From the UHGV virus genome UHGV-1335354: a stretch of DNA of 16,228 nt; one strand, written 5' to 3'. The position numbers were made by a program, and so were the translations under genes. Positions within the stretch are counted from its first letter, which is position 1; each line of letters begins with the position of its first letter. The stretch comes from a virus. Positions 1 through 13,661 of this stretch are shown here, piece by piece. The notes below the pieces were generated by a model. The model was not told the DNA's origin, did no database searches, and saw only the letters and a list, made by a program, of their open reading frames with translations.

Positions 1-55
1 AGAACGAGAGCTTCCCAAGCTCTATACGAGGGTTCGATTCCCTTCGCCCGCTCCA
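1..55 (+). tRNA. glyU: tRNA-Gly (anticodon CCC), 5' part cut by window edge; its 3' end is the attL side of the island
   Basis: Sequence matches the 3' two-thirds of enterobacterial tRNA-Gly(CCC) as I recall it: anticodon loop CTTCCCAAG, T-arm GGTTCGATTCC, acceptor 3' strand CGCCCGC, discriminator and CCA at 53-55. Confidence 0.9.
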
Positions 56-70
56 GAATCTCCCCAGGTG

Positions 71-93
71 GAGAAGACTAAAAAAGTCTTCTC
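71..93. other. perfect 8-bp stem hairpin (GAGAAGAC / GTCTTCTC, 7-nt A-rich loop) just downstream of the tRNA; no U-tract
   Basis: Inverted repeat read directly from the sequence; function unknown (tRNA 3' processing or att-associated structure). Confidence 0.3.
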
Positions 94-552
94 TGTCAGC
101 AACTTAAACAGTTACCTATTTAATTTGCTTAGGAGTTCTACCATTGTGATCCGCCCTTAGTAACTGTCACGTTAAGTTACACGGTGAGATGACAGTATAA
201 CCTAACGTTGGCGGCAGTTGCACCTCTCACACCGCGATAGCACAACGTGAAGATAAAGCCCATCCTGGCATTGTAATGTCATCGACAGACTGAACACACG
301 CATTTAAGCCCGATGTGCGGCCTTGTGGCTGCGTAAACAGGTTTATGGTGATATTGGTCCTTGCAAACCATATGCAAGCTCTATCAGCGTTTCAGCCACG
401 CTCCCAACGGGTACACGGTTATCCTGATAAGGTGTGATCTTTCTGACAATCTGATGAAGTCGCTACGCTCCCGCTTGTTGCTGTATCACCAACGGGGCTT
501 TATGGTTTCTATTGTCTATAATAATCTCACAATTCCCCTGCATGAGGTTGAT

Positions 553-759
553 ATGACTGTTAGCTACAAGATTACTTATGAGCATAGAGACGGTGATCAA
601 ATTAGAATGGAAGAGGTTTTATTCCATTCAGAGCATGAACCAACAAAAGATGAAATTCATGATGCAGTAAGAAAAGACACTGTGAGATTTAATTCTCCAT
701 CTAATGGAGTAACGGCTGTTTCAGGGTTTAAAGTGATTTCGGTTGTCCCTGTTCCATGA
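553..759 (+). CDS. hypothetical small protein (~68 aa); the ORF track extends it to 361 only via a TTG codon
   Basis: ATG at 553 preceded by GAGG 5 nt upstream; open frame to stop at 759; followed by a hairpin. No family recognised. Confidence 0.35.
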   Translation: MTVSYKITYEHRDGDQIRMEEVLFHSEHEPTKDEIHDAVRKDTVRFNSPSNGVTAVSGFKVISVVPVP

Positions 760-770
760 ATGGTTATAGA

Positions 771-787
771 AGGGGCTGGAAGCCCCT
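771..787. terminator. short hairpin between convergent genes (AGGGGCT-GGA-AGCCCCT), candidate bidirectional terminator
   Basis: 7-bp perfect GC-rich stem with 3-nt loop between the stop at 759 (+) and the stop at 793 (-); flanking sequence AT-rich on both sides. Confidence 0.45.
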
Positions 788-792
788 AATTA

Positions 793-1113
793 TTACTTCT
801 TAATATCGCCAGTGCATTGATATTCGATAGTCACAAGTGTTTGCATACAACCAGATGAAGAAGGTTGTGAACATTGAGAAGTGAATCCACCAAAAGGCTC
901 GGCTCCTGAATATCCCCAAGCGGCACAACGCGCTTTGGCTGCATTCATGCCTTGTTGTGGATCTACAACAGGACTTTCAAACATACCGTAAGAATAACTC
1001 ATCCTAACTGTGCCGTCTGATTTGCTTCCACCAGTTGGAACGAGTTGTTTTTTTGTTGCACATCCAGAAATAATCAATGTTGAAGCAAGTAACAGCATTA
1101 AACTTTTGCGCAT
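793..1113 (-). CDS. putative lipoprotein (106 aa) with six cysteines in the mature part
   Basis: N-terminus MRKSLMLLLASTLIISGC has a signal peptide plus lipobox (I-S-G-C) typical of signal peptidase II substrates; no specific family assigned. Confidence 0.6.
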   Translation of the reverse strand: MRKSLMLLLASTLIISGCATKKQLVPTGGSKSDGTVRMSYSYGMFESPVVDPQQGMNAAKARCAAWGYSGAEPFGGFTSQCSQPSSSGCMQTLVTIEYQCTGDIKK

Positions 1114-1257
1114 GTAAATAATCCCAAGAGATAATGGTTATGTATTGATTTAAAGCGTTTTTAGATTAATGCATTAACTTAGCAAAATTAAGTCTTTTCT
1201 GATTGTTTGCAGAGTAAAAATGAGTTGCTTTCGAAATTATTTCGGATGTTTATTGTA

Positions 1258-1425
1258 TTACGGTTTTTCAAACCGTCTAACTATTGTCGCTATTGAATGG
1301 GCAATAATAGCAAGAGGATTCATTTCGTCATTGGAGGCAACAAAAAGTCGGTAACTGATAGCTACAACGAATGAAACAATAACGAGAAAGCGGATAGTGC
1401 TAAGATGTTTTGAAGATAAATGCAT
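1258..1425 (-). CDS. unannotated small hydrophobic protein (55 aa), candidate membrane peptide
   Basis: Hand-translated minus-strand ORF MHLSSKHLSTIRFLVIVSFVVAISYRLFVASNDEMNPLAIIAHSIATIVRRFEKP; ATG preceded by AGGGGG Shine-Dalgarno ~5 nt upstream; absent from the ORF track because it is under 60 aa. Confidence 0.4.
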   Translation of the reverse strand: MHLSSKHLSTIRFLVIVSFVVAISYRLFVASNDEMNPLAIIAHSIATIVRRFEKP

Positions 1426-1765
1426 AACGCCCCCTAAATGAATGTGAGGGGGATTAAATCATGCAAATTTGTTGTGTGCAATACTGGTAATTTATCCTAA
1501 TAGTCTACTATTCACCTCAATCTACGTCAACCAATATTTGATGTAGATTTGATTTTCTTTTAAAAACAATATGTTGCAATTTGTTGGGTTTTGGGGTTAG
1601 GTTGTTTTTTGGACGTTTCCATCAAGTGTAAAGATACGTTTAGCCTTCATAGTGAGTTCAGTTACTGTCTTTTTCTCTGAAATCGGCGCATACGTGATCA
1701 TCGCTTAACGAGAAGATCAGCGCCGTCAGGTCCATGCAGCGACAATTCTGAAATATCAGGAGGCA

Positions 1766-2317
1766 TTACGCTTCCTGCTCTTTCTTGATACGTTGCACCG
1801 TCTGTGTGCTGACACTGAAATCTTTTGCTACGCTCCGAATTGATCCACCATTCGCGAGAGCGGCAACAATTCCCGCTCGATCAATTGCTTTTCCATTACC
1901 ACGTTTTGCTATACGCCCAGCTGCCTTAGCTGCGGCGATCCCTTCACGTTGACGCTCAAGCATCATTTCACGTTCCATTTGTGCCACTGCTGCAAGCACT
2001 GTGAGCATCATATTCCCTGCGGGAGAGTTCTTCCCTGTCTTAAAGTCTTCTTTATGGAAATGCACAGACACGCCGCGCTCTGTTAATTGCTCAACCGTTG
2101 CCAGAAGGTCGGCTGTATTACGGCAAAGGCGATCAATGCTGTGAACATGCAAAACATCACCTTCCCGCACATAGTTCATCATTGCCTCAAACTGTGGGCG
2201 CTGGGTATTCTTGCCTGACGCTTTATCTTCAAAGACTTTATCAAGAGTTACTCCAGCTAATTGACGGTCTGTGTTTTGTTGCACAGTCGATACCCTAATG
2301 TATCCAATATTAGCCAT
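1766..2317 (-). CDS. serine recombinase, small resolvase/invertase type (183 aa)
   Basis: N-terminus MANIGYIRVSTVQQNTDRQ with catalytic Ser at position 10, conserved R/D residues of the resolvase catalytic domain, C-terminal HTH (GGSIRSVAKDFSVSTQTVQRI). AGGA Shine-Dalgarno upstream. Confidence 0.85.
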   Translation of the reverse strand: MANIGYIRVSTVQQNTDRQLAGVTLDKVFEDKASGKNTQRPQFEAMMNYVREGDVLHVHSIDRLCRNTADLLATVEQLTERGVSVHFHKEDFKTGKNSPAGNMMLTVLAAVAQMEREMMLERQREGIAAAKAAGRIAKRGNGKAIDRAGIVAALANGGSIRSVAKDFSVSTQTVQRIKKEQEA

Positions 2318-2551
2318 TTTCTTTATTCCTTCTGTGTTGATTTGTGTGTAGTGATTATTGATCGTGTTGATTAGGTGTGTAAAGGACTTTTTTCACTACG
2401 AAATTCGAAGGTTTTTAGTGTGGTGATTTAGCCTGCTTTATCACTACACGTCTTGCATGAGAATCATGTAGTTACATTTTGGTAAAATTAGCAAGCTATT
2501 AAATAGTGTGTTTATTTTGAAAAAATAATTTTTTGTTGCATTAAAGGAAAC

Positions 2552-2585
2552 TTGTTCAATAAATGGTAGAACATTTATTGAGCAA
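2552..2585. promoter_or_regulatory. 34-bp palindrome (14-bp arms, 13/14 match, 6-bp spacer): candidate protein-binding or recombination site
   Basis: TTGTTCAATAAATG-gtagaa-CATTTATTGAGCAA read from the sequence, ~235 bp upstream of the serine recombinase start. Confidence 0.35.
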
Positions 2586-2940
2586 CAATTTTGCAGTGAT
2601 ACGCTATATGCCGCATTACATAAGGCTTTGCTGATGATAATGTAAAAGTGAAGAAAGTAAGAATTGCACTTTGAAGCTACTTTTCATTGCATTTTTTAGT
2701 ATGGAATTACACGGAATAAACTATGAATATTCTACGATTTACACGAGATATTCTTGCTGTTTAATTCCGGCTTTGGAGATCAGGCATTCGCAAGAATACG
2801 CTAACGCGTTGCCTGAAAAGCCATTGCACATAATAGAGGTGAGCGTATAGCGATACACTAATCATAACAACATCTTCTTACTTTTTAGTTAGTTAGTTGT
2901 TAGTAGGTTATTGTTATGCGCGCTATTAGCGCATGTATAA

Positions 2941-2989
2941 AGGTATCATTTTTATCTAAAGGGGCTTTAGACATTTTTGATACCTTTTT
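2941..2989 (+). terminator. bipartite hairpin (outer 8-bp and inner 6-bp stems) followed by a T-run; candidate rho-independent terminator or structured RNA
   Basis: AGGTATCA...CTAAAG-GGG-CTTTAG...TGATACCT followed by TTTTTC. Confidence 0.35.
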
Positions 2990-3025
2990 CTGTGCAAGAC
3001 ACTTACCAGTGTATAGTGCGGTTTC

Positions 3026-3077
3026 CCTACCTACCCAGGAAATGAGTTCCTACCTACCCAGGAAATGAGTTCCTACA
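3026..3077. repeat. 23-bp perfect tandem direct repeat, 2.3 copies (CCTACCTACCCAGGAAATGAGTT)
   Basis: Copies at 3026-3048 and 3049-3071 are identical, followed by partial copy CCTACA. Confidence 0.9.
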
Positions 3078-3084
3078 ATACTAT

Positions 3085-3106
3085 AATTAAACTACAATTA
3101 AACTAT
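3085..3106. repeat. 11-bp AT-rich tandem repeat x2 (AATTAAACTAC / AATTAAACTAT)
   Basis: Read directly from the sequence, immediately after the 23-bp repeats. Confidence 0.7.
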
Positions 3107-3239
3107 CTTTTATAAATTCTTTTATCTTTTAAAGAATAATTATAGGGATACCCGTTAGGGAGTCTTCGACTATCCCTTAATCTATTGGCATTCGCCAGAA
3201 CCTTGCACAAGTTAGACTGATGCTTGTCATAACAGATAG

Positions 3240-3287
3240 TTTTTGTTTTTTGTTTTTTGTTTTTTGTTTTTTGTTTTTTGTTTTTTG
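3240..3287. repeat. heptanucleotide microsatellite (TTTTTTG), about 7 units
   Basis: G at 3245, 3252, 3259, 3266, 3273, 3280 and 3287 with T6 between each; perfect periodicity of 7. Confidence 0.95.
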
Positions 3288-3943
3288 TTAGTAGTTAGCT
3301 GATCTATGTTCGCTTTCCGCTCACAACGAATATGTAATCTACTATGTGCAAATAGCCTACGGCTTGCGTATGGCTAATAGTCTTGCGCTGTGCGCAGAAC
3401 GATAATTAACTAACTACCATCTAACGATTGAAATTTACTTGTGCAATAACCTGAGCGTAAGCGAATGGTTGTTAGTGTCGCGTTACCCTTTGGGGATGCT
3501 AACGCATAACATGACAAAACAACCAACAACAAAAAAGAAAGAATGGTTTTTGTAGTTGAAGGTTAAATAAGATTCTACCGCTTAAATCAAGCCGTAGGCG
3601 AGCTTAACAGGGTAATGTAAGGGAAACACCTTAGCGGTAATAGATTAGCTCGTTACAGAGCTTCTGAGAACTTTGCAGGTATTTTATAAGATGTCTGAAA
3701 TCAGAGTTTATCTATCCACCATCTTTCCATCATCTGATAAATCAAAAATAAGACCCTTAAATAAGCCTCTGACGAGATAAACAACCTCTACATAAGGGAA
3801 TGTATTGTTTTTATCAAAACCCCGTCAGAGTGCGATTGAGAGCGTTTTAGACAACAGGGAAGAATTGTACCAGAGTAGGCAGCACAAAAAGCTAAGAAAA
3901 ATTATAAGAAATTGAAAATGATCAAATTTTTTATAAAAGAGGG

Positions 3944-3972
3944 TTGACAAAGCCGCCGTTATGTAGTATTGT
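3944..3972 (+). promoter_or_regulatory. candidate sigma70 promoter for the rightward small-gene operon
   Basis: TTGACA (3944-3949), 17-bp spacer, TATTGT (3967-3972); about 115 bp upstream of the first gene. Confidence 0.45.
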
Positions 3973-4088
3973 AAGTAGGGAGGGGAGAAACATCTCTCTC
4001 CATCTAAATAATCAAATCACAGAACACTGCACTTTGAGCCGTCAGGCTGCAAGGTGTGTTTTTCTTTTATCTAAATAAGGAGTTTTTT

Positions 4089-4294: not shown

Positions 4295-4471
4295 ATGAAT
4301 ATTAATTTTGATTCTGCAACTTATAACGCGTTGTTAAATCGTGCAAAGGCAGAAGGGAAATCAATTCCAAAACTTGTTAATGAATTACTAATTACAGTCC
4401 TTACAAAGGAGGAACTAAATGAACCAAAACACCAAAACAATTGCCGAAGCAAAAGCGCAATGCCTCAATAA
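4295..4471 (+). CDS. unannotated small ORF (58 aa), possible ribbon-helix-helix (CopG/Arc-like) DNA-binding protein
   Basis: Hand-translated: MNINFDSATYNALLNRAKAEGKSIPKLVNELLITVLTKEELNEPKHQNNCRSKSAMPQ; GGAGAAGGAG upstream; N-terminal 40 aa resemble an RHH fold by composition; overlaps the next gene by 53 nt in another frame. Confidence 0.4.
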   Translation: MNINFDSATYNALLNRAKAEGKSIPKLVNELLITVLTKEELNEPKHQNNCRSKSAMPQ

Positions 4472-5084
4472 GAAAGATAGTAAACAAACATATGTAGTAG
4501 TTGAACAATGGCTGAAGATGTTTAAAAAGTGGTTCTCACCGTCAGGTAAGGAATACACCGCGACACTTCCAGCCGTTGAAATCTACAGTTACGTAGCTGG
4601 GTTCAATGAACAAGGGCAAGAATGTTACGCCAATCAAAAAACATTAGCTAATATTGGAATGGTTAGTGATCGTCAGGTGCGTAATATTATAAATATGTTT
4701 ATTGATATGGGTGTTCTTTCTGTAGAGGCACGGGACGGGCAAACATCACTCTATAAAGCATTACCCTTTACAGATGCACACATCACACCACCGGAAGACG
4801 TAAAAACCTCTGTAAACGTAGAACAGCCTGCACCTGAAACACAGGAACCGTTAGAAGCGACACACTCTATTGAGCAGGAAACACAGGCAGAAATCACGGA
4901 ACAATCTGATCTTTTTACATGGCTTATTTCCATAGACAGCCAAAAGCCTATGCAAGAAGAAACAGAAAATTTTATAAAACGTGCACTGACCTCGAAGAGG
5001 ATAATTCTTGAAGATGATGCTTTTAATGCACTGATGATAGCCCTGAGAAAAGAAAGTGAAATCTATGACTCAATACCATTTTAA
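4419..5084 (+). CDS. putative winged-helix/HTH DNA-binding protein (221 aa), replication-initiator-like or regulator, with acidic low-complexity C-terminal half
   Basis: AAGGAGG Shine-Dalgarno 7 nt upstream; central segment ECYANQKTLANIGMVSDRQVRNIINMFIDMGVLSV resembles HTH modules of phage/plasmid replication initiators; no Walker motif. Confidence 0.55.
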   Translation: MNQNTKTIAEAKAQCLNKKDSKQTYVVVEQWLKMFKKWFSPSGKEYTATLPAVEIYSYVAGFNEQGQECYANQKTLANIGMVSDRQVRNIINMFIDMGVLSVEARDGQTSLYKALPFTDAHITPPEDVKTSVNVEQPAPETQEPLEATHSIEQETQAEITEQSDLFTWLISIDSQKPMQEETENFIKRALTSKRIILEDDAFNALMIALRKESEIYDSIPF

Positions 5085-8270: not shown

Positions 8271-9305
8271 ATGAATATTCAAGAATTATTTGGTCGTCAG
8301 GCGAGCGTAGTAAGCCCATTCGAATATGAGCAAGGCTTAAACCTGCTGTTCTCTTCCCTGGAGATCTTTGATAAGCAATCTCACAGCACTAACAGTATTC
8401 TTCTGACTACTGCAATTGAAAGCTTTATGCAGATTGCAAATGAGCAAGAACCCTACGCACAAAGTCAGTGGGACTCAAGCAAGCGCGGCACCTTCTCAAA
8501 CGTAATGTTTGAAATGAAGCACCTTGCAACCATCAACAGCGTGACAAGTCGTGATCTTGAACAGTACAGCCGTAAAAATCTTTCTACTGCTGACTCTATG
8601 CTGCTGGCGATCAATGATTTTGCTAATCAGCATTACCGCTCACATGAGAACGCTGTAGAACGTGATCTGCTGCGTGCAATCCTCACGCTGAAAGTAGAAT
8701 CTCAATTTGCAGGTCAAGGTGATATTGATTTGCTGGAAGGTGACGCTAAAACCGTAGCGCCTGCAATTGACTTCACAAGCACTACCGTAAACCCTTACCG
8801 TGCACTGGCTAAGATTGTTCGTCAACAGTCTAACATTCTGGGCGAATCCCTTGCGGCTAAACGTTCCGGTGTTCTTGTGCTGGCTGCTGGCGGCGCTGCT
8901 GATGGTCTGCGTTACAACGATATGCTGAAAGATCAGGTTGTTTACTCCAGCAATGCACAGGCAAGCGCGGCAGTAACTAAGATCGTAGCTGATAACCCAG
9001 CGTATGATGCTTTCCAGCTTGCACAGGTGACTGTTATTGATGTTAGTGACTTCCCGTCAATCGTTGCAGAAATCGGTGAAAATGGTTTGGTTGTGATCCC
9101 GCTGTTCCCTGCTGATGTTCAAGCTTACGTGCTGCATACAGGCGTCGCGGTCCGTCATGCCGAACACGGTAAAGATGCGGAAACACATCACCAATATCTG
9201 ACACAGGATCAGTTTATGTTCCCGTCAGTGTGCACCGAAACGGCTTACCTGCCATTCATTCAGAAAGTAGTTGCTAAAGCGATTATCTTCTCTGAAGCAC
9301 AGTAA
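8271..9305 (+). CDS. possible major capsid protein of the lambda gpE-like family (344 aa)
   Basis: AAGGAA Shine-Dalgarno; length matches gpE (~341 aa); N-terminal segment QELF...FEYEQGLNLLF resembles the gpE N-terminus as I recall it; follows the decoration-like gene as in lambda D-E order. No alignment run. Confidence 0.6.
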   Translation: MNIQELFGRQASVVSPFEYEQGLNLLFSSLEIFDKQSHSTNSILLTTAIESFMQIANEQEPYAQSQWDSSKRGTFSNVMFEMKHLATINSVTSRDLEQYSRKNLSTADSMLLAINDFANQHYRSHENAVERDLLRAILTLKVESQFAGQGDIDLLEGDAKTVAPAIDFTSTTVNPYRALAKIVRQQSNILGESLAAKRSGVLVLAAGGAADGLRYNDMLKDQVVYSSNAQASAAVTKIVADNPAYDAFQLAQVTVIDVSDFPSIVAEIGENGLVVIPLFPADVQAYVLHTGVAVRHAEHGKDAETHHQYLTQDQFMFPSVCTETAYLPFIQKVVAKAIIFSEAQ

Positions 9306-9667: not shown

Positions 9668-11515
9668 ATGAGTTTAGATATTTCTGTATCTACTTTAAAA
9701 AATACAGTAACCTTTGTTACCGATCATAAAAGCCTGAATAAAGCTAAAGCAGAAGTTGAAAAACTCCGTAAGCAAATGTCAGCCGTGAAAGACGTAGAAA
9801 TACGTGTTAAGACACACAAACAATCAACAGCTAAAACAAAAAAAGACGTAGACGATATTGCTAAAAAGCAAGCACAGGTAGATAAGGCAAATCTCAAAGC
9901 ACAAAAAGCGGCTCAACGTGTAGCGGCGCGAGAACAAAAAGCCCTGGCAGCACGCAAAGAGAAAGCAGAATTAAAACTGTTAGATGTTGGATCAAGTATT
10001 AGTGCAATGAATCGTCTTAATGTGTCTGAACAATACAAAGCTATTGCACAAGCTAAAGCTATTGCACACGAATATGAGAAGGGCGCTATTAGCCTGGCAC
10101 GTATGAATAGCCAAATGAAACGACTTCAACAGCAACAACGTAAGATTAACGGCAATCGTAACGCTCATGCTAAAGCTTATGCACCTGTTAAGGGTAGCGG
10201 GAGTATTGGCGGCGGTGCTGCTGCTGTTATGCTGGGCGGCTTAGGCGCTGGCGCTGCATTCTTGGCTATGAGTAAAGCAAACGAATTCGTTGCTAATAGT
10301 TTTGCCAATGCTGAGACACAAGGTGAATTATATAGCCGTGCGAAGCTGGGCGGTGTAGACGTTAACCAGATGAATAATATTGAGCAATGGGCGTATAAAA
10401 ACGGCGTTGATTCAATGATGGGCGAACAAGGGAAACGTAAATACCTCGACCAAATGAAAGATGTGCGTGAACGTGCAACCAAATCTTATGATGAGACTGA
10501 ATATGTAGTTGATAAAAAAACTGGTAAAGGGGAATGGAAGGGCGGCGATTCAGGTATTAATACTTTATTAAACGAAGGTTTCTTAACTAAGAAAGATTTA
10601 AAAGACTTCGCTAATAATCCGGCAGGTTTAATAAGTAAAGCAACACAAGGAATGGTGGCGAAAGGTTATTCTGATGCACAGGTGGGGTCACGGCTTGAAG
10701 ACCTGGGAGATGACCTTATGTTGACCTCCAAATATTGGACACGATCCGCTAAAGAAGTGGAACAATCAGCCCGTGAACAAAAAGAATCAGGACGCTGGAT
10801 AACGCAGGCACAACAGGAAAGCGTGATTAAATTCCGTGAACTGAATAATGCACTTACCGGACTTTCTGACTCACAAGGGATCGCCTTTGTTGATGGCTTT
10901 ATGAAATCTCTCGATCCTGCTGTGATTGAAGAATTTAAAAAGAGCATGGTTGCAATGCTGCCAATGTTTACCAAATTGGGCGAGGCTGTAGGGGGGCTGC
11001 TTAATGCGATCATGAAAACTATCAACTGGTTGATGAAAAATGACGAGAAGACGGCAGCTATTCAGAAGAATTTAGGTGATGCCCCTCCTTTAAGTAATGA
11101 AGGAATGAAGAAGAATTTAGATAATCTCACTCCTGATCAATATAAAGGCGCTGGCACTGCAACAACTGCACCGGATAATAGTAACTCTCTGTTTAATACT
11201 ATTAAGGGCTTTTTTGTTAATGGTGATGATTCTCCTTCTGGCGGTCAGGCTGCAATGCAATATGACGTTACAGGGCAAAACATTGCCAACCTGAAAAACA
11301 GTGCTGCACAGCAAGCTATGCAAGCTCCAGCCTACACATTTGCGCCTGTTCTCAATTTTGCACCTGAATTACAAGTTAATGCACAAGTGCCGCTAACTAT
11401 TCAGAGTGATACCGGACGATTGAGCGATTATATCGACTTCAAATCTAAAGCCTCTGCCGCTGAGTTTAGCAAGCTATTAACCCTGGGCGTTATGTCAGGC
11501 GGGTCAACCTATTAA
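9668..11515 (+). CDS. coiled-coil, glycine-rich protein (615 aa), tape-measure-like
   Basis: AAGGAG Shine-Dalgarno; N-terminal ~160 aa K/A/Q/E-rich coiled-coil-like; Gly/Ala hydrophobic segment GSGSIGGGAAAVMLGGLGAGAAFLAMS; no enzymatic motif or Walker A seen. Confidence 0.6.
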   Translation: MSLDISVSTLKNTVTFVTDHKSLNKAKAEVEKLRKQMSAVKDVEIRVKTHKQSTAKTKKDVDDIAKKQAQVDKANLKAQKAAQRVAAREQKALAARKEKAELKLLDVGSSISAMNRLNVSEQYKAIAQAKAIAHEYEKGAISLARMNSQMKRLQQQQRKINGNRNAHAKAYAPVKGSGSIGGGAAAVMLGGLGAGAAFLAMSKANEFVANSFANAETQGELYSRAKLGGVDVNQMNNIEQWAYKNGVDSMMGEQGKRKYLDQMKDVRERATKSYDETEYVVDKKTGKGEWKGGDSGINTLLNEGFLTKKDLKDFANNPAGLISKATQGMVAKGYSDAQVGSRLEDLGDDLMLTSKYWTRSAKEVEQSAREQKESGRWITQAQQESVIKFRELNNALTGLSDSQGIAFVDGFMKSLDPAVIEEFKKSMVAMLPMFTKLGEAVGGLLNAIMKTINWLMKNDEKTAAIQKNLGDAPPLSNEGMKKNLDNLTPDQYKGAGTATTAPDNSNSLFNTIKGFFVNGDDSPSGGQAAMQYDVTGQNIANLKNSAAQQAMQAPAYTFAPVLNFAPELQVNAQVPLTIQSDTGRLSDYIDFKSKASAAEFSKLLTLGVMSGGSTY

Positions 11516-11562: not shown

Positions 11563-12240
11563 ATGGCTTATGGTGCTTTAACCATCGGACGACCGACAGA
11601 ATCACAAGTAAACAGCACAAGTAACGATTCTAACGCGAAAGCGACGAAAGGACAGAACGGTTTCGCTATCATCACCTCTAACCTCGGCAGTGGTGCTAAT
11701 GCTGCGTATGCAGAGTATCAAGCTCTCAGCTTTGACAGCGTGGAATCGACAAAAGTTAGTCGCAATGCGGACGTAACAAGCTATGCCGTTCAGGATGGGG
11801 CTATGGTGTCCGATCACATCCAGATCAAGAACAATAAGTTTTCATTGCAAGGGCGCGTAAGTGAAACAGTATTGAAGCTTAACCCTGATATGCTTAAGAA
11901 CGCGGGTATTAACGGCAATCGTAGAATGCTTATGCTTGAATACCTAAATCAGATCATGGACTCACGCCAGCCCTTCATGTTGATAACAGAACATCGTAAT
12001 TTTGACAATGTGGTGCTGGTTGGGATTGATTACGAAGAAGAAGCCAGCGAATCATTGCTCTTTAATCTTGAATTCGAACAAATACGCCTTGTGAGCTATG
12101 CAACCACTAACGCTATTGCTACAAAGACACAGAGCAATAAATCGACAGGTGGCAGTGTTAAAACTAAGGTTAACCCGACACCACAAAAAGCACCTACGAG
12201 TACAGGTGAGGACGTTATAACGCCAGTATTTAAACAATAA
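11563..12240 (+). CDS. hypothetical protein (225 aa), last gene of the structural-like operon
   Basis: AAGGA Shine-Dalgarno; followed by a hairpin; no family recognised. Confidence 0.55.
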   Translation: MAYGALTIGRPTESQVNSTSNDSNAKATKGQNGFAIITSNLGSGANAAYAEYQALSFDSVESTKVSRNADVTSYAVQDGAMVSDHIQIKNNKFSLQGRVSETVLKLNPDMLKNAGINGNRRMLMLEYLNQIMDSRQPFMLITEHRNFDNVVLVGIDYEEEASESLLFNLEFEQIRLVSYATTNAIATKTQSNKSTGGSVKTKVNPTPQKAPTSTGEDVITPVFKQ

Positions 12241-12333: not shown

Positions 12334-13554
12334 TTAAGCCTTAAAATCAATATTTAATTCATATCTTACTAATTCTACATATTCAGCTAATTCTTGAATG
12401 CTTGCCCCTTGTGAGTAGGTGCGAAAGGCTTCTGTTTTAGCTATCTGCTCTGTATGTCCGGTAATGGCTCCGATCCGCTGTTCAGGCACTCCGGCACGAT
12501 CAAGACAAGTGATAAACATCCCGCGCAAGCTGTGAAAGCATTGTCTATTTGTAGCGATTGGCAAGACGCTACGACGTAAACGTGAGAATGCTTGAGAATA
12601 GAAAGGGCCTTTCTTACCGTCGATTCTTTTTACTTTGTTCGAGTGAGGGAACAAATATTCACCATAATTATGATTTAAATATTCATCGACAATAATCGAT
12701 AGTCTCGAATGTATCGGAACGTGCCTGATCCCTGCTTTAGTCTTACTTTTGCTGATATAAAAACAGCGTATTCCTTCCACAGTTACAACTTCTGACTTTT
12801 TCAGGCTTGCCAGTTCGTCTAATCTGCATCCTGAAAACAAGCCCATTAAAATAATATTTCTGATCTCCGGCTCCGCTGCATCAAGTAGCTTTTGCATTTG
12901 TTCAGGTGTAAACGGTTGATAACTCTCGATTGTGCGACGTGCTTCGAGGTTATGACCGTGAAAAGGGTTACTGTCTGGTATTCCGTCATAACGGCGTTTA
13001 GCAAATTCATAGAGCGATCCTAAGCATGTAAGCCAGTTTTGACGAGATTGATCGGCTGCTCCTCGTTGCTTCTGGTCATCTAAGAATACTGTTACAAGCC
13101 GTCTGCCTATTTTCTCAATATGAATATCATCTTTCTGAATGCTTTGTAAAAATAGCTCAACGGCCCTTGCTGATTTCTGTAGTGTTGAGTATGAACGACG
13201 CTCTCTGTAGCATTCGGCGTATTCGTCACGTATTAGGCACAGGGAAGGCGATGCATAACCGCGTTTTACGGCTCTTTGCGTGTTTTTATTGGCCCTTGCC
13301 TCTGAATGTAAGGATTCAATAGCTTGTTGTAACCTCCTTTCGGGGTTATCAGGATTATGTTTCCGCTTTAGTTCCTCCCATTCTAATAATAGATGGTTTC
13401 TGAATCTTCTCGCCTCATTCAGATCTCGTGTAGATGTGCTTTTTCTCCACAACTTGTAAGGGTAAAGATGACGTAAGTATTTAGGAACAAAAATCTGAAA
13501 CATCCAGATCCCATCTTTTCTCTTAAATAAGTATGCTTGGCTCTTGATCGACAC
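12334..13554 (-). CDS. int: tyrosine-type site-specific integrase (406 aa), GTG start
   Basis: C-terminal catalytic-domain signature: Arg in GCRLDE, HSLRG box, ITGH, terminal Tyr region; AGAGGA Shine-Dalgarno 8 nt before GTG; lies 86 bp inside the right direct repeat. Confidence 0.9.
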   Translation of the reverse strand: MSIKSQAYLFKRKDGIWMFQIFVPKYLRHLYPYKLWRKSTSTRDLNEARRFRNHLLLEWEELKRKHNPDNPERRLQQAIESLHSEARANKNTQRAVKRGYASPSLCLIRDEYAECYRERRSYSTLQKSARAVELFLQSIQKDDIHIEKIGRRLVTVFLDDQKQRGAADQSRQNWLTCLGSLYEFAKRRYDGIPDSNPFHGHNLEARRTIESYQPFTPEQMQKLLDAAEPEIRNIILMGLFSGCRLDELASLKKSEVVTVEGIRCFYISKSKTKAGIRHVPIHSRLSIIVDEYLNHNYGEYLFPHSNKVKRIDGKKGPFYSQAFSRLRRSVLPIATNRQCFHSLRGMFITCLDRAGVPEQRIGAITGHTEQIAKTEAFRTYSQGASIQELAEYVELVRYELNIDFKA

Positions 13555-13631: not shown

Positions 13632-13661
13632 GGGTTTCCTCGATTCCCTTCGCCCGCTCCA
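13632..13661 (+). repeat. attR: direct repeat of the tRNA-Gly 3' end
   Basis: 13640-13661 is identical (22/22) to tRNA positions 34-55 (TCGATTCCCTTCGCCCGCTCCA); upstream GGGTT also matches with a 3-4 bp insertion. Confidence 0.85.

Follow-up and report, generated by a model that had tools for sequence, protein, structure and literature searches.

In type I toxin systems such as TisB, ZorO, DinQ, ShoB and Hok, the primary transcript is translationally inert through a leader that occludes the ribosome-binding site. Small membrane proteins of the MgrB, AcrZ and MgtS type are encoded by core-genome genes and have known partners. Morons are promoter-gene-terminator units found at prophage ends and are typically variable. 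A spanin pair, finally, consists of a type II membrane protein of about 100–150 aa with a periplasmic coiled coil and of a small Rz1-like lipoprotein, the two being conserved together. The locus described here comes closest to the first of these systems in the reading that I favour, to which I give a probability of about 0.55: it would comprise a real membrane-protein gene, locked by a hairpin and forming a module independent of the lipoprotein gene beside it, and its product would be dose-sensitive and type I-toxin-like.

The window, that is the whole stretch of 16,228 nucleotides that was analysed, begins with the 3' part of a tRNA (its first 52 bases). The queried region is 100% identical to chromosomes of swine ETEC and O139:H1 E. 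coli, where this tRNA is glyU, a tRNA-Gly. A perfect 22-nt direct repeat of the 3' end of tRNA-Gly, at 34-55 and 13640-13661, delimits a 13.6-kb integrative element. Judged by its sequence, the window is an integrative phage-like island inserted at glyU of E. coli. The attL-proximal genes follow one another in the order 85-aa ORF, YecR-family lipoprotein gene, 55-aa ORF and serine recombinase gene, and the genes referred to below are these:

502-759, plus strand: 85-aa ORF at the attL-proximal end
793..1113, minus strand: YecR-family lipoprotein gene (PF13992), a neighbour lying outside the conserved module
1258..1425, minus strand: the small ORF, 55 aa, stop codon included in the coordinates; sequence MHLSSKHLSTIRFLVIVSFVVAISYRLFVASNDEMNPLAIIAHSIATIVRRFEKP, predicted two-helix membrane protein
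1766-2317, minus strand: serine recombinase gene of the resolvase/invertase type, 183 aa, the usual but replaceable upstream neighbour of the small ORF
4419-5084: replication-initiator-like gene
8271-9305: gene named major capsid protein by PGAP
9668-11515: tape-measure-like gene
11563-12240: gene for a Dit-like tail protein
12334-13554, minus strand: tyrosine integrase gene at the distal end of the element

Sister islands at thrW (O104:H4 2011C-3493, J-8 and others) and at leuX (CE0021a) carry the same small-ORF slot, and some genomes contain up to three copies. The island family is uncharacterised so far and confined to Escherichia. A 20-mer taken from the block upstream of the small ORF matched only Escherichia in a scan of one genome per species, and a full-text search of papers for sequences and accession numbers found no mention.

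The original prediction, made from the sequence of the window, was that of a 55-aa hydrophobic peptide with a basic C-terminus, oriented like the genes on either side of it. This description is borne out. The ORF starts with an ATG at 1425..1423 and is read from the minus strand, as are its two neighbours, for the lipoprotein (793..1113) and for the recombinase (1766..2317). The Kyte-Doolittle mean over 15 residues peaks at 2.3, at about residues 8–25 of the protein; the AlphaFold2 model, whose mean pLDDT is 78, contains helices at residues 2–33 and 37–53; and the C-terminal residues, RRFEKP, are basic. The product is thereby predicted to consist of an N-terminal hydrophobic helix and a shorter C-terminal helix, hydrophobic or amphipathic, with basic end residues. 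The second helix falls short of the length of a canonical span, and the hydrophobic helix contains an Arg, to which the O104 type adds an Asp. That the peptide is unannotated is true of RefSeq/PGAP in the glyU island type, where nothing is annotated between yecR and the recombinase gene, but not throughout: PGAP does annotate the 52-aa homologue of the thrW islands (WP_000550450/WP_000550449), and a few GenBank records list the 55-aa protein as hypothetical. It is very probable that the 55-codon frame is genuinely a gene and encodes a small two-helix membrane protein.

At the homologous position, the thrW islands carry a 52-aa ORF (MHLLSKHLHTIHFLVIDVFVVAISYRICIASSEEMDAVAIIAQAMAMLTKRL) whose product is 58–60% identical to the 55-aa protein. 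The only further relative retrieved by an exhaustive HMM search, which covered 1.84 billion representative proteins, was P0011 (MRFISSILKTCRTTITLAVIVTIIYLIYFTPRDKIDSLAIIAHAMATLTKKL; 33% identity, E=3e-4). It represents a third lineage, present as an ORF in 53 complete E. coli genomes, and its gene likewise lies just downstream of a resolvase gene. The 55-aa, 52-aa and P0011 proteins align without a gap. Beyond the Escherichia island copies, neither two word-indexed protein searches nor the exhaustive HMM search returned a relative of the small protein, and tblastn against phages and plasmids gave no match. Lack of conservation in related islands had been named beforehand as a reason to doubt the peptide; since the ORF is conserved in sister islands, this reason falls away. 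It is kept in the thrW islands and in metagenome and viral contigs, with substitutions of the coding type.

How far the protein itself is constrained was judged from the substitutions between lineages, whose number is small because the family does not extend beyond Escherichia. The two closest lineages give a dN/dS of about 0.53, which taken by itself is not significant. In comparisons with the third lineage, synonymous sites are saturated (pS 0.67–0.78) and pN is 0.37–0.41. Between the O104 type and the third lineage (L015), pS and pN are 0.78 and 0.37 over the whole ORF, and 0.67 and 0.19 in the C-terminal 20 codons; the best-conserved part of the protein is the C-terminal helix motif AIIA(H/Q)(A/S)(M/I)A. 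When the same number of substitutions was placed at random, the three pairs gave p=1e-4, 5e-5 and 0.011 for reaching the BLOSUM62 score of the real alignment. Since the substitutions preserve amino-acid similarity beyond random placement, I conclude from these alignments that selection acts on the sequence of the small protein, most clearly in its C-terminal helix. Within lineages, all three changes in the ORF are non-synonymous, and truncated alleles occur (P0009, P0006).

The upstream region contains the following elements:

1435..1430, minus strand: Shine-Dalgarno (SD) sequence AGGGGG, separated from the ATG by the 4-nt spacer CGTT; AGGAGG in sister alleles
1421..1465, minus strand: predicted leader hairpin, to which the folds, a compensatory change at 1450/1432 and the opening energy point
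1530..1502, minus strand: sigma-70-type promoter TTGACG-17-TAGACT, of the same architecture in all lineages
1519..1549, plus strand: 12-bp inverted repeat over the -35 hexamer, forming a stable hairpin (z = -5.0) followed by UGAUUUUCUUUU
1545..1693, minus strand: near-invariant upstream block, which stays with the small-ORF module also where another gene has taken the place of the recombinase gene

The AGGGGG motif noted in the original prediction can be read directly from the sequence. To call it a strong SD is apt for the motif but not for its accessibility: since it is buried in a conserved hairpin, it is real but predicted to be locked, that is base-paired in the leader rather than free. 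In the predicted fold, the inner stem pairs an anti-SD sequence, CCCCCU (1452..1447), with the SD (1435..1430), and the outer stem pairs UGCAUGAU (1465..1458) with GUUAUGCA (1428..1421), which buries the AUG in a pairing with an upstream UGCAU. The SD is buried in every leader variant, and the pairing is kept even though the sequences of the arms differ between lineages: CCCCCU/AGGGGG, CUUCCU/AGGAAG, UCCUCC/GGAGGA, CACUCC/GGAGUG and, in a longer stem, GAUAC..CUAUUG/CAAUAGG..GUAUC. Within the window's own lineage, Combat11I9 and 18SZHZ655Rt have two changes only in the 120 nt upstream of the ATG, C to U at 1450 and G to A at 1432. These two positions are the partners of one base pair, so that the double change from C:G to U:A is compensatory; it also converts AGGGGG to AGGAGG. 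The third (L015) lineage has three one-sided changes, all of which retain the pairs.

The cost of exposing the initiation region was quantified as the energy required to open the leader from the SD to the AUG. This measure was used instead of the mean pairing probability over positions -13..-5, which is uninformative because the interval includes loop bases and because shuffled sequences also pair their G-runs. For the leader of the window the opening energy is 13.9 kcal/mol, in contrast to 9.1 for controls. Over seven haplotypes it ranges from 10.9 to 14.6 kcal/mol, as against 6.6–9.1 in controls with a shuffled upstream part (p between 0.01 and 0.055 each), and Fisher combination of the p values over four lineages gives about 5e-4. 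The folding calculations and the substitution pattern predict that the SD and the AUG are occluded by a hairpin that is conserved under selection.

Upstream of this hairpin, the -35 hexamer and the spacing, TTGAC[GA]-17, recur across lineages and the -10 hexamer differs (TAGACT, TAAACT, TAAGCT or AATAAT), as in the variants TTGACA-17-TAAACT and TTGACG-17-AATAAT. With transcription putatively starting near 1495, the leader would measure about 70 nt. The mismatches of the inverted repeat at 1519-1549 are G-U pairs on the plus strand only, which favours a structure formed by that strand, and in my own reading analogous sequences, a hairpin with a U-tract, occur in the other lineages. The motif does not occur a second time in the window. 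It could be the terminator of a cis-antisense transcript, or an operator.

The slot of the leuX and ST38-glyU islands holds an ORF of 64–69 aa (3719-3928, minus strand, in L004/L005), which has the same promoter and an SD hairpin. Homology of the 69-aa ORF of the leuX/ST38 type to the 55/52-aa family was given a probability of 0.2% by hhalign, and this ORF was treated as a positional analogue. A second -10 hexamer, a perfect one (TCTACA-16-TATAAT), is also seen in leuX/ST38-glyU islands; transcription from it would begin inside the 5' arm of the hairpin and yield a short, unlocked transcript.

Upstream block (about 1545-1693), promoter, hairpin and small ORF together make up the conserved unit. 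J-8 and ST38 retain this unit; in them a gene for a secreted, Cys-rich protein stands in place of the recombinase gene, and the blocks that flank the replacement (the slot of window positions 1766-2317) are preserved. The replacement gene (L003 6534-7085 and L005 4296-4847) lies on the opposite strand, has exactly the same length, 552 nt, and encodes a signal peptide. Recombinase alleles that are identical occur together with small ORFs of different lineages. In comparisons between lineages, a stretch that is otherwise 91–97% identical diverges most in the ORF and its leader; within lineages, they are its least variable part. Exchange or inversion of a segment by the adjacent recombinase was considered and rejected: neither the promoter nor the recombinase gene is flanked by convincing inverted repeats, and the small-ORF module also persists where there is no recombinase. 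The near-invariant block itself contains a 34-aa ORF (MITYAPISEKK..., 1597-1701, minus strand). This frame is uninterrupted in every lineage, its start position being occupied by ATG, TTG or GTG; an SD is lacking, and what is conserved is the nucleotide sequence.

The downstream neighbour had been described as a cysteine-rich lipoprotein. It is a lipoprotein, with a lipobox, ISGC, at residues 15–18 and a full-length match to Pfam PF13992 (E=1.8e-23, 83 bits against a cut-off of 27) that places it in the YecR family; with five Cys in all, cysteine-rich is a mild overstatement. Within this family it is an island-borne paralogue, as opposed to chromosomal YecR, and in other islands it is unlinked to the small ORF. 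Homology between the window and the thrW islands ends at window position 1287, just inside the 3' end of the small ORF. The thrW, leuX and ST38-glyU islands have the small-ORF slot and lack yecR. Since the slot follows immediately upon the attL arm (window 1-533) in ST38, the 85-aa ORF and yecR together represent a cargo insertion of about 750 bp, which spans window positions 534-1287 approximately and is specific to one lineage. In the remnant island of NCTC9966, a deletion from window position 1315 onwards truncates the small ORF and leaves yecR intact. On this comparison of islands, the lipoprotein gene is unrelated cargo and a bystander to the small ORF. What follows the small ORF in the thrW islands is a strong stem-loop shared with a convergent gene. 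The latter is a highly basic ORF of 50 aa (MKNIAAIKRNNRKIHARKFLSTPEGKAWLERKQRENEERKLLSELKWLKD; L002 5762-5914), absent from the window, and could be a partner of the small ORF in these islands.

In the reading favoured here, the small ORF would be an autonomous module, transcribed from its own sigma-70 promoter (1530..1502) with a leader of some 70 nt. The full-length mRNA would be poorly translated as long as the hairpin pairs the SD with CCCCCU and the AUG with UGCAU, and translation would require opening of the hairpin by processing, by an RNA or protein factor, or by rare breathing. The protein would be dose-limited, membrane-active and harmful at high dose in the manner of a type I toxin, and it may act in the maintenance of the island or in the exclusion of phages or competing elements. 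It is from the double restraint placed on a tiny hydrophobic protein of a mobile element that I infer a dose-sensitive, membrane-active product; the toxin-like role is suggested by analogy. The small hydrophobic ORF expected of a type I toxin is present (55 aa, hydropathy peak 2.3, two predicted helices), and so, in silico, is an mRNA inactive by its own structure, with a buried SD and AUG and compensatory changes in the stem.

No known family accounts for the protein or for its control. Searches against toxin, holin and defence families (Pfam, PHROGs, NCBIfam, PADLOC) gave no match at E<=0.01 to 1, nor did the small protein match the profiles of the Hok/Gef, Ldr, TisB, Ibs, ShoB and GhoT/OrtT families, and Rfam had no match for the locus. 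For a cis-antisense antitoxin, no promoter conserved in position emerged when the antisense strand of five lineages was scanned. For a divergent antitoxin acting in trans, of the IstR/OrzO type, complementarity of the leader to the upstream divergent strand is at the level of shuffled sequences, the energy of the RNA duplex being no better than theirs.

The same observations can be read differently. The ORF might be incidental, its frame left open by chance in AT-rich DNA, and the conserved item might be a structured RNA, whether a regulatory RNA or a cis element. Covariation in the stem does reflect selection at the RNA level, neutral simulations leave the frame open in 18–35% of trials per comparison, and the dN/dS of 0.53 for the closest pair fits such a view. 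However, amino-acid similarity is kept far beyond what random placement of substitutions yields, the C-terminal helix is kept where synonymous sites are saturated (pS 0.67 vs pN 0.19), and the hairpin is built precisely around the SD and the start codon in all lineages, all of which makes an incidental ORF improbable. A stronger contender, which I still regard as clearly secondary, is a benign small membrane protein that modulates a membrane protein of the host or of the island, as MgrB, AcrZ or a superinfection-exclusion factor would, the hairpin serving to set a low level of expression. Such a protein would have the same anatomy of hydrophobic helices, protein-level selection and SD hairpin; the motif AIIA(H/Q)(A/S)(M/I)A suggests a specific interaction surface over generic hydrophobicity, and no antitoxin emerged from the antisense promoter scan, the duplex energies or Rfam. 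Yet nothing points to a partner, the presence of an unrelated small ORF in the slot of one lineage argues for a generic property, and occlusion of the initiation region as strong as that found here (11–14.6 kcal/mol) is more typical of harmful products. The idea of a small membrane peptide that may be a toxin, a holin or a regulator is plausible in its first part, a real small membrane protein, whereas these three roles are not distinguishable by computation.

Two further readings assign the peptide to lysis or to a partnership, and both seem to me very improbable. One takes the peptide and the YecR-like lipoprotein as a functional pair, either toxin and immunity factor, as had been speculated, or a spanin-like lysis pair. 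The genes are co-oriented and 144 nt apart, and no terminator-like site is predicted between them, so that co-transcription is possible in the glyU island type. Against this, no yecR is present in the thrW, leuX and ST38-glyU islands, all of which keep the slot, and the gene survives in NCTC9966 where the small ORF is truncated; since it is missing from most sister islands and retained in that remnant, a role as partner, immunity factor or spanin subunit is unsupported. Sequences resembling promoters for yecR are present both within the small ORF and beyond its end. The spanin version was rejected on its own terms: the lipoprotein belongs to the YecR family and is not an Rz1-like o-spanin, 55 aa is far too short for an i-spanin, and the pairing is not conserved. 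A leader peptide or uORF for yecR was likewise discarded since sister islands have a different downstream gene or none, the thrW ORF preceding a stem-loop and a convergent gene. The other reading is that of a holin or pinholin-like lysis protein of the island. Small size, two hydrophobic helices, a basic C-terminus and a phage-like element would suit it. That no endolysin was recognised among the island ORFs scanned with Pfam and PHROGs argues against a holin; the sole endolysin-labelled PHROG match (phrog_1517, E=1.7e-16) is a secondary one, on the Dit-like tail protein (11563-12240). No spanin family matched any scanned island ORF, the small protein is without a PHROG match, and some 6.8 kb separate its gene, at the cargo end near attL, from the structural genes.

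Other parts of the island deserve mention in their own right. An 85-nt non-coding stretch directly downstream of the recombinase stop codon (1680-1762) shares 80% identity with a region devoid of genes in phAPEC8-like phapecoctaviruses (65 phage records). The phage counterpart lies near both ends in several records, which suggests a terminal repeat, and the differences between island and phage preserve a plus-strand hairpin (UGAUC/GAUCA vs AAGA/UUUU). A 40-nt piece at 3500-3539 matches the same phage gap region weakly. The island may be a satellite that shares a cis element or small RNA with phAPEC8-like phages; its capsid-like protein had no tblastn match in the phage collection. Window positions 2318-4010, about 1.7 kb, contain neither an annotated gene nor an ORF of at least 80 aa. 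Within them lie runs of (TTTTTTG)n (3242-3296) and complementary runs rich in A (3517-3543), as well as a 23-nt sequence perfectly repeated in tandem (3026-3071) and several palindromes; this may be an origin or a regulatory region.

The conserved upstream block is present in about 300 of 5426 complete E. coli genomes, to which the third lineage adds its 53. If the favoured reading of a hairpin-locked, dose-sensitive membrane protein is true, several hundred E. coli genomes carry an overlooked and inconsistently annotated gene for a small membrane protein; its unusually clear translational lock, supported by covariation, would be a convenient model of how mobile elements restrain harmful small proteins; and an uncharacterised island family would gain a candidate maintenance or anti-phage function. 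Should the protein be a harmless accessory, the value would lie mainly in corrected annotation. A bolder proposal, which I consider doubtful, is that the unit of promoter, hairpin and small ORF is an undescribed, fast-diversifying toxin or exclusion cassette of phage-satellite-like Escherichia islands, unlocked only on infection by a helper phage, possibly one of the phAPEC8-like phages with which the island has the 85-nt element in common, and acting in abortive infection, interference or release without a classical antitoxin.

Set against the described systems, the module resembles the type I toxins TisB, ZorO, DinQ, ShoB and Hok in that a hydrophobic protein of less than 60 aa is encoded on a horizontally acquired element, under its own promoter, behind a leader that occludes the ribosome-binding site, the last of these features being known here in silico only. 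It differs from them in that the small protein has no sequence similarity to theirs (Pfam, NCBIfam), that there is no LexA box, and that the search yielded neither an sRNA gene for an antitoxin nor a conserved antisense promoter nor a divergent RNA with complementarity. It is like MgrB, AcrZ and MgtS in size and in having one main hydrophobic helix plus a short tail; unlike these, the small ORF is island-borne, varies strongly between islands and is predicted to be strongly occluded at the level of translation. It is like the moron cassettes of prophages in forming an autonomous transcription unit in the att-proximal cargo region, but here the island family keeps the slot throughout, and it is the content of the slot that diverges.
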